Positions 33,801-36,800 of a stretch of DNA of 64,000 nt are shown piece after piece. The position numbers are program-made. Every line of letters starts with the position of its first letter. Position 1 is the first letter of the stretch. The stretch is from the NCBI RefSeq assembly GCF_054482525.1, contig NZ_CM137006.1. One strand, written 5' to 3'.

Positions 33801-36800
33801 GTGCCGGAAGAGCGAAGCTATGCAGCGTGTACTGGCATTTTATCAAGGAAATGTTAGGTATTTTAGACGTTACTAGATTAAAGAGCATTAGTTCAGATGT
33901 GAATTGACATTTTCATGGCGCAGGGTAGAGCCAGCGTGGTTGTCCGCTTTGCGTCAAAACCAGATATTACCAGATTTAGACATATATTCCCGATAGACCT
34001 GCTCTGATGCTACACTCTGTGCTATTTTCATGACCCCAATAAAAATATTTATGACTATTGCTGATTTCAAACGGCCTAAATTGGAGCTCCCAAACGGGGC
34101 AAACAAACTACTACTGCACTCTTGCTGTGCTCCATGTTCCGGTGAAGTGATGGAGGCGCTTCAGGCCTCGGGAATCGACTACACCATCTTTTTCTACAAC
34201 CCGAACATTCATCCTCAGAAAGAGTATTTAATTCGTAAGGATGAAAATATTCGCTTTGCTGAACAACACGGCGTGCCGTTTATCGATGCTGATTACGACA
34301 CCGACAACTGGTTTGAACGTGCCAAAGGAATGGAATGGGAGCCTGAGAGGGGGATCCGTTGTACCATGTGTTTTGACATGCGTTTTGAGCGGACAGCGTT
34401 GTACGCTGCTGAAAATGGTTTCAGTGTGATCAGCAGTTCACTGGGCATTTCACGCTGGAAAAATATGCAGCAGGTTAACGAGTGTGGGCGGCGAGCTGTT
34501 GCGCATTATCCGGGTATGGTGTACTGGGATTATAACTGGCGCAAGCAGGGCGGCTCGTCCCGTATGATTGAAATCAGCAAGCGCGAAAAATTCTATCAGC
34601 AGGAATATTGTGGCTGTGTGTATTCTCTGCGCGATACCAATCTACACCGCAAATCTCAGGGACGCCCTCTTATCAAAATTGGCCAACTCCACTACGGAAA
34701 AGAAGAGAAGGAGTGATTTTATGGATCACCTTTCTGATTGATTTTATATTGGCGAGGTAACGGGAGTTAAGTAGAATGGCTGCGGGTGCTTGAGGCTATC
34801 TGTCTCAGGCATGAACACCAAAGGCAGATAGAGAAAAGCCCCAGTTAACATTACGCGTCCTGCAAGACGCTTAACATTAATCTGAGGCTCAATCTATGAA
34901 CGGCAAATCTAGGTTAGCCTCTTACGTGCCGAAAGGCAAGGAGAAGCAGGCTATGAAGCAGCAAAAGGCGATGTTAATCGCCCTGATCGTCATCTGTTTA
35001 ACCGTCATTGTGACGGCACTGGTAACGAGGAAAGACCTCTGCGAGGTACGAATCCGAACCGGCCAGACGGAGGTCGCTGTCTTCACAGCTTACGAACCTG
35101 AGGAGTAAGAGACCTGGCGGGGGAGAAATCCCTCGCCACCTCTGATGTGTCAGGCATCCTCAACGCACCCGCACTTAACCCGCTTCGGCGTTTTTTCCGT
35201 TGATTAACTCTAGTTATTAGAGAACCGAACTTTTATTGATGGGGCAGGGAGATGAAGAAACTTGTTTTAGTCGCAGGTGTAATGATTGCAACAGTAATGT
35301 TGGGAGGGTGTGCAGCAAAGATCGATCCAGCGTTGAAAGCAGAAGCAATGAAGCCACTAACATGTAATGATGAAAAGCAATGTGACTTTTATTGGAAACG
35401 AGCGCAATTCTGGTTGGCTAATAATTCCTCATGGAAAATTCAAACGGCGACAGACACGCTAATTTCCACTTATAATCCCTCTCCAAATAGTCCATTCCTC
35501 GCTTATCAAGTGAGTAAAATGCCAAATGAAGATGGATCCTCAAGAATTTTCATCAAGCCTTTTTGCGATAATATGTTTGGCTGTCAACCAAACCCCTATC
35601 AGGCAGTTGTTTCCTTTAAAAACTTCGTTAAAACAGGGCAGTAGTGTATAGCTTGGACGATAAATTATTAGTGAAAACGCCGTAAACCCTCACCCAATGT
35701 GGACTAAGTCTATCAAACATGACTGTGATGATTAGTCCGTAGTTGTTGTCTATGAAATCTGGATTGAGTCAGGGTTTAATCCAATAATTATTCTATCGTT
35801 CCTTTACAAGTCCGGTATATTACTTTCAGTTTGTTTTAGCATACCCGCTTCGGCGGGTTTTGTTTTTTCCTGGCATTCTGGTTTACAATTCGCACGCCAG
35901 CCTGAACAACTGGCACCTGCTGCGCCAGCAGAGACAACCGATGGCGCACGATACCAAATTACACAATTCTGATGATTCTGCCGTCTTTGCCAGCAGGCAC
36001 GGGCGGCGTTCCCGCACTTTCAAATCTGACTGGTTCCAGCATGACCCATGTACTGAAGAACAGGCCGAATGGCTAATTCATAACTATCGCAGACGCGGAT
36101 ACGAGATTAAGAAAGCCCTCAGCCTCGATTATCGTCACTGGATAATCTATGTCAGGCTCCCTTATTCCGAACGCCCACCGCGCCCATCCCGCACATACCA
36201 GCAACGGATCTGGAGGTAACGTGCGGATATTACTTCGACCTGTTCTGGTACCGGAACTCGGGCTGGTGGTCCTTAGGCCGGGCCGTGAATCCATGCAAGT
36301 ATTTCATAACCCTCGAGTGCTGGTGGAGCCTGAACCGAAAAGCATGCGCGGTCTGCCGTCCGGAGTCGTCCCTGCCGTTCGCCAGCCGCTGGCGGAGGAT
36401 AAATCATTACTGCCATTTTTCAGCGATGAGCGGGTGATTCGTGCTGCTGGCGGCGCTGGGGCGCTGTCTGACTGGCTGTTGCGTCATGTCAAATCCTGCC
36501 AGTGGCCTCATGGTGACTATCATCACAGTGAAATCGTCATACATCGTTACGGTACCAGCGCGATGGTGTTGTGCTGGCACTGCGACAACCAGTTGCGTGA
36601 CCAGACATCCGAATCACTCGGGCAACTTGCTCATCAAAACCTGTCAGCATGGATGATTGACGTCATACGCCATGCAATGAATGGCACGCAGGAGCGGGAA
36701 TTGTCGCTGGCTGAATTATCTTGGTGGGCGGTCTGCAATCAGGTGGCGGACGCGCTTCCGGAGGCAGTATTACGTCGTTCTCTGGGGGTACGTGCGGAAA

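Follow-up and report, generated by a model that had tools for sequence, protein, structure and literature searches.

A prophage-borne lipoprotein gene of Escherichia coli is a single-gene cassette in the hokD terminator and belongs to a large family of mobile-element cargo

We analysed a stretch of 64,000 nucleotides of the Escherichia coli chromosome (NCBI RefSeq assembly GCF_054482525.1, contig NZ_CM137006.1; hereafter the window), which carries a lambdoid, Qin-like prophage beside mtfA/tRNA-Ser and, within this prophage, a gene for a 130-residue lipoprotein at 35252–35644. The open reading frame (ORF) of this lipoprotein is the sole gene of a 665-bp cassette of low guanine-cytosine content (GC), which is placed in the terminator hairpin of hokD, and its relatives recur as accessory genes of many mobile elements. 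The reading with the best support is an autonomous, envelope-located cargo protein of mobile elements that is probably expressed in the lysogen. By association, its most likely role is to shield the carrier from incoming phages at a step that is independent of receptor identity, a reading to which we assign a probability of about 0.4.

Results

The lipoprotein gene is intact and under purifying selection

The gene and its predicted export signal are located as follows.

35252–35644 (+): lipoprotein coding sequence (CDS), 130 aa; RefSeq WP_000737634.1, 'hypothetical protein'
35252–35311 (+): predicted signal peptide (aa 1–19) and lipid-modified Cys20; from the sequence, with Cys20 at least 90% conserved in a 117-sequence alignment

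The protein starts with MKKLVLVAGVMIATVMLGGC, which comprises a positive n-region (KK), a hydrophobic core and the lipobox L-G-G-C, so that all elements of a lipoprotein signal are present, the codon of Cys20 being 35309–35311. A lipobox-like motif was likewise found within the first 60 residues of 131 of the 163 retrieved relatives. In E. coli, the residue after the lipidated cysteine governs outer-membrane sorting (the '+2 rule'). Since this residue is alanine here, transfer to the outer membrane is predicted by the rule, and we infer the outer membrane as the location of the lipoprotein. The first-pass annotation of this DNA had placed an ORF with the lipobox LGGC at exactly 35252–35644 on the plus strand, which the sequence bears out; it had also counted six further cysteines, and here it erred, as only four (positions 38, 44, 105 and 111) exist beyond Cys20, five in total.

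Within E. coli, the intact 130-aa frame is kept in 49 of 50 near-identical loci from IMG/VR, with substitutions that are only scattered. Against enterobacterial homologues of 73–84% identity, the nonsynonymous divergence (dN) is 0.13–0.17, while the synonymous divergence (dS) is saturated. The lipoprotein gene is real, more than a chance ORF, and purifying selection on it is strong. Of 5426 complete E. coli genomes, 254 carry the cassette, in each case on the chromosome and in one or two copies, and the carrier strains come from many hosts, including enteroaggregative E. coli (EAEC) 042 and avian-pathogenic E. coli (APEC) IMT5155. In every one of the 50 loci it lies between hok and a rem-like gene; the cassette is 97–100% identical in nearly all of them (90–96% in one allele), and the flanking ydfU-like gene is 82–100% identical across the same loci. 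The cassette is thus more uniform than its flank, which is the mosaic pattern of a recently spread module.

Additionally, we observed that the 90%-identity protein cluster of window:35252-35641, counted at 1137 members (a figure not to be taken at face value), also holds many 70-aa Hok toxins. This joint cluster is probably an artefact of fragmentary or fused gene calls across both genes, for example P0015 with 163 aa.

The gene forms a single-gene cassette in the hokD terminator hairpin

The cassette, its junctions and an upstream promoter candidate are listed below.

35191–35842 (+): inserted cassette ('moron'), missing from the Qin prophage of K-12; delimited by composition profile and cross-locus identity
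35178–35196 (+): left, damaged copy of the terminator hairpin, ACCCGCTTCGGCGTTTTTT, the left junction; direct repeat with 35843–35861, and the K-12 alignment breaks here
35843–35868 (+): intact intrinsic terminator, ACCCGCTTCGGCGGGT + TTTGTTTTTT, the original hok terminator and right junction; same sequence as the K-12 Qin hok terminator
35645–35842 (+): 3' untranslated region (3' UTR) of the cassette, with the inverted repeat 35683–35698 / 35763–35778
34749–34777 (+): sigma-70-like, putative promoter of the hok mRNA, TTGGCG-17-TAGAAT, from a consensus scan; just upstream of the Rfam hok/sok match at 34784

A direct repeat of 13–19 nt, ACCCGCTTCGGCG(...), occurs at 35178–35196 and again at 35843–35861, with a spacing of 665 bp. 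The empty site is seen in the Qin prophage of K-12, in which hokD is followed by a single intact hairpin, ACCCGCTTCGGCGGGTTTTTGTTTTT, and then by rem, in the gene order hokD-rem-ydfU-ydfT (the last a Q-like antiterminator). As far as the hairpin, the window matches hokD of K-12 Qin at 99% identity, and the homology ends inside the left copy. K-12 itself lacks a homologue of the lipoprotein. The GC of the cassette is about 0.39–0.43 (profile over 35150–35900) versus about 0.50 in both flanks. The cassette therefore combines the features of a moron, namely insertion between genes that are adjacent in related phages, deviant composition and a terminator of its own, a concept reportedly introduced for lambdoid phages by Juhala and Hendrix. 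It shares with lambdoid morons the insertion between otherwise adjacent genes, the deviant GC, the 3' terminator and the recurrence of the same cassette in mosaic flanks; it differs in that the scan demonstrated no promoter of its own and in that the insertion lies inside the terminator hairpin of the hok mRNA, a possible source of transcription. The designation of the ORF as a cargo gene is thus upheld by the empty site, the foreign base composition and the terminator of the cassette, as well as by the recurrence of the family in accessory positions of many mobile elements.

The two hairpin copies differ in their predicted strength. The left copy lacks the descending arm and retains a 3-bp stem (−4.1 kcal/mol, z = +0.2 versus shuffles), and the right copy (−13.1 kcal/mol, z = −3.5 versus shuffles) consists of a GC stem of 6 bp that is closed by a UUCG loop and followed by a U-run, in accordance with the strong downstream terminator that had been annotated earlier. 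The left hairpin being no better than shuffled sequence, read-through from hok into the lipoprotein gene is possible. No sigma-70 consensus match was found inside the cassette upstream of the ORF (scan of 35191–35251). By eye, relatives carry an extended −10-like element, TGnTAGGAT / TGCTAGAGT, upstream of the gene, and the homologous position of the window reads TCTAGTTAT. Judging from the sequence, transcription of the lipoprotein gene may start at a degenerate promoter within the cassette, or else at the promoter-like site of hok and continue past the crippled left hairpin.

An enterobacterial prophage (locus L059) carries a 76%-identical homologue in its tail region, with the same hairpin, ACCCGCTTCGGCGGGTTTTTG, and a homologous leader upstream; the homology to this leader begins at the left junction of the window, 35178–35196. 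The hairpin and leader common to both loci suggest that the cassette moved by recombination at a shared terminator hairpin.

The 198 bp after the stop codon have lost 68 bp in some alleles and 104 bp in another, with the ORF intact throughout, which argues for constraint on the ORF and not on the non-coding 3' stretch; by this comparison of alleles, the 3' UTR appears dispensable and decaying. We considered whether it is a remnant of the 'companion' lipoprotein of relatives described below, and rejected this because neither tblastn nor blastn gave a match. No Rfam family was found above threshold in the 3' UTR. Two side observations concern the same stretch: the arms of its inverted repeat are 16 nt long, 88% complementary and 64 nt apart, and a weak, sub-threshold rsmX-like Rfam match (18 bits versus a gathering score of 56) covers 35756–35863. 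Natural deletions remove the repeat region, so that it is probably non-functional.

Two of the E. coli loci show further rearrangement around hok. L033 (about 6589–7939) has an IS10 in the 3' UTR of hok, immediately before the cassette, with a 402-aa transposase and a target duplication of 9 bp, CACTTAACC. At L035 (about 6449–6870), hok is present as a tandem duplicate, of which copy 1 has an intact K-12-type terminator and copy 2 has the cassette.

The protein belongs to a large unnamed family with a confidently modelled domain

No Pfam or NCBIfam family matches the 130-aa protein, the Pfam search at E ≤ 1 returning only a sub-threshold chance match to collagen C4, and a sequence-profile search against PDB gave nothing meaningful. 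Among PHROG profiles, phrog_16082 matches over the full length (E = 3e-84) and phrog_4186 matches with E = 2e-8, neither with an annotated function. A word-indexed search found close enterobacterial relatives only; an exhaustive phmmer search of 1.84 billion cluster representatives found 972 matches at E ≤ 1e-3 and 451 at E ≤ 1e-10, most of them 125–140 aa long. With about 450–970 sequence clusters, the lipoprotein belongs to a large unnamed family, of which all named members are labelled 'hypothetical', 'lipoprotein' or 'prophage protein'. The earlier description as an unrecognised family holds for Pfam and NCBIfam but needs qualification, as PHROG gives a full-length match and the family is large. 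Searches for the accessions WP_000737634 and WP_032201349 found no literature on either, and keyword searches gave precedents and not the family.

The family consensus reads LxGC ... PLxCxxxxQCDxYWxRAQxW ... NSxWKIQTxTDxxIxTYxP ... LAY ... CxNxFGCxP ... FKxxV, in which C20, C38, C44, W48, W54, T73, C105 and C111 show little or no variation. Each of the two C-x5-C pairs may form a local disulfide, as might be expected of a periplasmic protein. Variants of the family include C-terminal PDZ fusions, a tandem duplication and an Acinetobacter protein that combines an ordinary, non-lipoprotein signal peptide (by eye) with a LysM domain and the family domain (hhalign probability 99.1%).

The AlphaFold2 model shows a small alpha+beta domain with a mean pLDDT of 94. 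It resembles Flpp3, the N-domain of BamC and KA1 only generically, with identities of 3–14% and all Foldseek E-values above 0.01, and no predicted viral structure in BFVD resembles it. Homology to Flpp3/DUF3568, the BamC N-domain or eukaryotic KA1 is unproven on the basis of the model, and no function is transferable from them; specifically, the protein differs from Flpp3/DUF3568 of Francisella in that Pfam gives no DUF3568 match and in that the four conserved cysteines and the motif QCDxYWxRAQxW are peculiar to the present family. By helical periodicity, without coordinates, residues Q43, Y47, R50, W54 and N57 would lie on one face of the helix 41–58 and could form a binding surface.

Relatives occupy accessory positions in four kinds of mobile element

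In four independent divergent prophages (L003, L077, L078 and L080/L081), the family gene lies 15–55 bp downstream of, or overlaps, a co-oriented maintenance repressor of the S24 peptidase or helix-turn-helix (HTH) type, which is divergent from cro/cII-like genes; a terminator directly follows the family gene in two of the four. In phage lambda, the position behind the repressor holds rexAB, which is expressed in the lysogen.

A second setting is the tail module. About ten lambda-like prophages, as well as a Klebsiella plasmid of 54.5 kb with tail genes, carry the family gene between the tail genes K and I, adjoining J, where a second, unrelated lipoprotein (phrog_890, phrog_914 or phrog_14789) usually comes after it. 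More generally, second small lipoproteins (phrog_890, 914, 14789 or 10370) adjoin family members in tail modules and elsewhere, at L064 8428–8850, L058 8374–8784, L059 8332–8679, L069 8422–8766, L071 8431–8775, L063 8422–8967 and L004 5662–5997; L064 has in addition a DUF1375/YceK-like lipoprotein on the opposite strand, at 9547–9888. These adjoining lipoproteins look like moron stacks at one hotspot, and the window cassette is without such a partner.

Outside prophages, a 41%-identical relative, WP_032201349.1, is the main cargo of ColRNAI plasmids of 2.5–4 kb in Citrobacter and Salmonella, which otherwise carry replication and mobilisation genes and one or two tiny ORFs; the exact protein is present on at least 1000 contigs, the longest of 8.6 kb. 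In Shewanella pNi1-3 (L088), an integron has a family member as its first cassette, flanked on either side by GTTRRRY cores. Specifically, intI lies at 5713–6672 (−) and the family gene at 7001–7405 (+), GTTAGGC is located upstream of the gene, and GCCTAAC...GTTAGGT downstream, the 5' part of which is repeated after each of the next three cassettes, so that the ORF next to intI is bounded by attI and attC as an integron cassette is. A distant member stands beside an integrase (L076, 7001–9770), followed by a 273-aa protein, an AIPR abortive-infection protein and a group II intron reverse transcriptase; this region has the appearance of a small, defence-island-like cargo of an integrated element.

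The family is sparse when whole collections are searched. With three family members as tblastn queries, only 2 of 50,697 isolated-phage records were positive, both of them induced E. coli prophages. A degenerate DNA pattern for CDxYWxRAQxW, applied to 100,044 species-representative genomes, returned three stretches, one being a chance match in an unrelated gene of a Synechococcus metagenome-assembled genome, and hence the family only in a Cupriavidus and a Variovorax. Family prophages were also seen in environmental Pseudomonas-like and Burkholderiales-like bacteria (GC 0.57–0.62), in Shewanella from sludge and in metagenomes. Taken together, these contexts point to a rare accessory gene that travels without partners and is retained at sites from which resident elements express genes of benefit to the carrier.

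The lipoprotein does not follow the receptor-binding end of the tail protein J

The first-pass annotation had likened the protein to Cor and Llp, small lipoproteins that block outer-membrane receptors. Cor (phi80, N15, HK022, T1; PHROG 1119) and Llp (T5) are outer-membrane lipoproteins that inactivate FhuA. The Cor profile (phrog_1119) aligns to residues 1–43 only, covering signal peptide, lipobox and linker (E = 0.0088), and it detects no Cor-like homology in the mature protein; nor was any Llp-like similarity found in sequence or structure, or any Cor/Llp-like structural match in BFVD or PDB. The present protein shares with Cor and Llp the small size of a phage lipoprotein, an outer-membrane-type sorting signal, the status of accessory cargo and, in many relatives, linkage to tail-tip genes. 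It differs from them in a mature domain about twice the size of Llp and in a family that extends to plasmids and an integron.

Comparison of pairs of carriers was then informative. Between L064 and L065, the lipoproteins are 99% identical, as are the N-terminal 600 aa of J, whereas the C-terminal 300 aa of J are 32% identical; between L064 and L069, the corresponding values are 94%, 95% and 34%. The C-terminus of the window J is unrelated to those of other carriers. We therefore rejected the idea that the type of lipoprotein tracks the receptor-binding domain of J. Adaptation of a lipoprotein to the receptor that its phage uses should make it co-vary with this domain, as the Lpp types of mEp phages track receptor type (PMC11893012); the present family does not co-vary, which disfavours a plug of the Cor/Llp type. 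In the same source, the structural-cluster lipoproteins Lpp021 and Lpp010 of mEpimmI coliphages exclude phages when expressed alone, with OmpA or LamB as receptor types (PMC11893012). They resemble the tail-module members of the present family in being lipoproteins encoded among the structural genes of temperate phages; neither of the two tblastn-positive phage records is an mEp phage, so that Lpp021 and Lpp010 are not detectably related to it.

Surroundings of the cassette in the window

The genes next to the cassette are the following.

34784–35196 (+): hokD/sok type I toxin-antitoxin locus, including the 3' UTR up to the damaged terminator copy; Rfam RF01794 with 110 bits, Pfam HOK_GEF with E = 3e-23, RefSeq
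34784–34958 (+): sok Rfam match
34896–35108 (+): mok-like ORF
34953–35108 (+): hokD CDS
35941–36219 (+): gene in the rem position, 92 aa, outside the cassette; RefSeq annotation of an identical locus and K-12 order

The local order is replication genes, QueH, sok/hokD, the lipoprotein gene, the gene in the rem position, DUF968/ydfU, rusA, Q, four tRNAs and lysis genes. With replication genes on one side and Q on the other, the lipoprotein gene sits in the equivalent of the nin region, as first noted.

Several further features of this and related prophages deserve mention. The early region contains a gene for a QueH epoxyqueuosine reductase (34030–34716; Pfam E = 1e-65), and four tRNA genes (Ile, Lys, Thr and Gly) lie directly downstream of Q at 38523–38829, so that tRNA-modification and tRNA-supply cargo are paired in one phage. 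Upstream of the prophage, a 2895-aa ORF at 15135–23822 (−) presumably encodes a giant surface adhesin of the host chromosome. In L082 (E. coli 042, about 5130–20350) and L083 (OkiPb01701, about 9650–24610), the prophage terL is split by an integrated element of about 15 kb that has its own integrase, a primase-like DUF927 protein, capsid, protease, portal and terminase and resembles a capsid-forming phage satellite; terL of the window (42843–44600) is intact.

Discussion

Several lines of evidence bear on what the lipoprotein may do. Carriage on small plasmids and in an integron argues for its autonomy, the lipobox together with the PDZ and LysM fusions argues for action in the envelope, and near-identical lipoproteins beside unrelated J C-termini argue for independence from the receptor. 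Superinfection exclusion, the function first proposed, remains the most plausible one, by association only, and its receptor-plug form is not supported.

In that form, the protein would inactivate the outer-membrane receptor on which its own type of phage depends (FhuA, BtuB, LamB, OmpC and others) by binding it from the periplasmic side, blocking adsorption or DNA ejection and shielding progeny from cell debris. An outer-membrane-type lipoprotein carried as a prophage moron suits this explanation, and many relatives sit in the tail module adjoining the host-specificity gene J, which is reminiscent of Cor and Llp, whose genes are also linked to tail genes, and of the Lpp proteins of mEp phages (PMC11893012). 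But the similarity to Cor stops at residue 43, no structural match was found in BFVD or PDB, lipoproteins of 94–99% identity accompany J C-termini of 32–34% identity, the J C-terminus of the window is unrelated, the family occurs on small plasmids and in an integron without tail genes, and the window gene is 21 kb away from J; we regard the plug as distinctly improbable. The protein could instead act in the periplasm as an inhibitor of, or immunity protein against, an external enzyme that attacks the envelope, such as a phage tail peptidoglycan hydrolase, a type VI effector, a colicin/pesticin-like bacteriocin or a lysozyme. T4 Spackle and the Tai/Tsi immunity lipoproteins are analogues of this kind. 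The predicted periplasmic location, the fusion to peptidoglycan-binding LysM in Acinetobacter and the PDZ fusions are in line with such a role, as is the position of the tail-module gene directly after gpK, whose relatives presumably carry an NlpC/P60-type domain; being the main cargo of small ColE1-type plasmids is also typical of bacteriocin-related genes. Even so, we consider an inhibitor or immunity protein of this sort unlikely.

Functions unrelated to phages must be weighed as well. Prophage lipoproteins of the lambda Bor type act as host-fitness factors, and lambda Bor/Iss and plasmid TraT are conversion lipoproteins that confer serum resistance and surface exclusion. They are like the present protein, as predicted here, in being outer-membrane lipoproteins that mobile elements carry as cargo and express while resident, and unlike it in size and predicted fold. 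A fitness or virulence factor of this kind, serving serum or complement resistance, stress tolerance or colonisation, would be consistent with the E. coli carriers, which include numerous strains of the avian-pathogenic, extraintestinal and enteroaggregative kinds. However, Pfam gives no match to Lambda_Bor/Iss (PF06291) or TraT (PF05818), the E. coli carriers come from many hosts and environments, and serum resistance is irrelevant to the environmental Pseudomonas-like and Burkholderiales-like carriers, to sludge Shewanella and to those from metagenomes; this alternative is in our view quite unlikely. That the gene is a neutral passenger or a decaying remnant without current function might be read from the lack of a known function, the decaying 3' part of the cassette and the lack of a clear promoter. 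This is very hard to reconcile with a dN of 0.13–0.17 at saturated dS, intact frames in 49 of 50 loci, a cassette that is more conserved than its flanks, and retention on minimal plasmids and at the first position of an integron, and we hold it to be highly improbable.

For the protection of the carrier at a receptor-independent step, we propose the following sequence of events. A single-gene moron would have recombined into the terminator hairpin of the hokD locus of the prophage and would be expressed in the lysogen, driven either by a weak promoter within the cassette or by constitutive transcription of hok that continues past the crippled left hairpin. The lipoprotein would be exported by Sec and processed by Lsp to a mature form of 111 aa (about 12.6 kDa), anchored through Cys20 to the inner leaflet of the outer membrane, with its compact alpha+beta domain and two C-x5-C disulfides facing the periplasm. 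There it would act alone, without a phage-encoded partner, by binding a conserved envelope component or a conserved part of the incoming agent, and so protect the carrier; the likely step would be the passage of the tail tip or DNA across the periplasm and cell wall, whatever the receptor. T4 Spackle, which inhibits the tail lysozyme in the periplasm, and Ltp, a lipoprotein of the Streptococcus phage TP-J34 that blocks DNA injection, are the closest precedents for an exported protein that blocks entry after adsorption independently of the receptor, as proposed here by analogy; neither sequence nor fold similarity to them was detected, and Ltp belongs to a Gram-positive system.

More broadly, and more doubtfully, the whole family might represent a new envelope defence module in which one protein suffices and the identity of the receptor is immaterial. 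It would block a conserved step of phage or bacteriocin entry after adsorption, for instance as a ligand of the tail-tip or tape-measure complex when this emerges, or as an inhibitor of a cell-wall hydrolase carried by the tail. If true, a module that works alone could spread freely among prophage immunity operons, tail hotspots, 2.5-kb plasmids and integrons across Gamma- and Betaproteobacteria. In the preprint of Vassallo et al. on 21 E. coli defence systems, one of the systems involves a lipoprotein, and clones that blocked adsorption were discarded from the screen (bioRxiv 10.1101/2022.05.12.491691). PADLOC gives no link between the present family and that set of 21 systems, and no PADLOC-DB 2.0 defence model matched the window protein or a Pseudomonas-type relative at E ≤ 0.1.

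A lipoprotein moron of a temperate phage is already known as a kind of thing; the family itself, its fold class among such proteins, the breadth of its carriers and its independence from the tail receptor-binding domain are not described in the resources or literature searched. Envelope-level exclusion proteins are under-represented in defence catalogues; screens usually discard surface-altered clones and prediction from defence islands misses single small prophage genes. The family described here is compact, with a mature protein of about 110 residues and a confident model; it comprises hundreds of clusters, and mobile elements of four kinds carry it. Apart from genes for replication and mobilisation, a family member is the principal gene on many small ColE1-type plasmids of Salmonella, E. 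coli, Klebsiella and Citrobacter. The cassette also illustrates how morons may move, as it suggests recombination at a shared terminator hairpin. If the family does block the entry of phages or bacteriocins, this would explain the purpose of many 'cryptic' small plasmids and would be relevant when therapy phages for E. coli and Salmonella are chosen; the few exclusion lipoproteins known so far would gain a new structural class.

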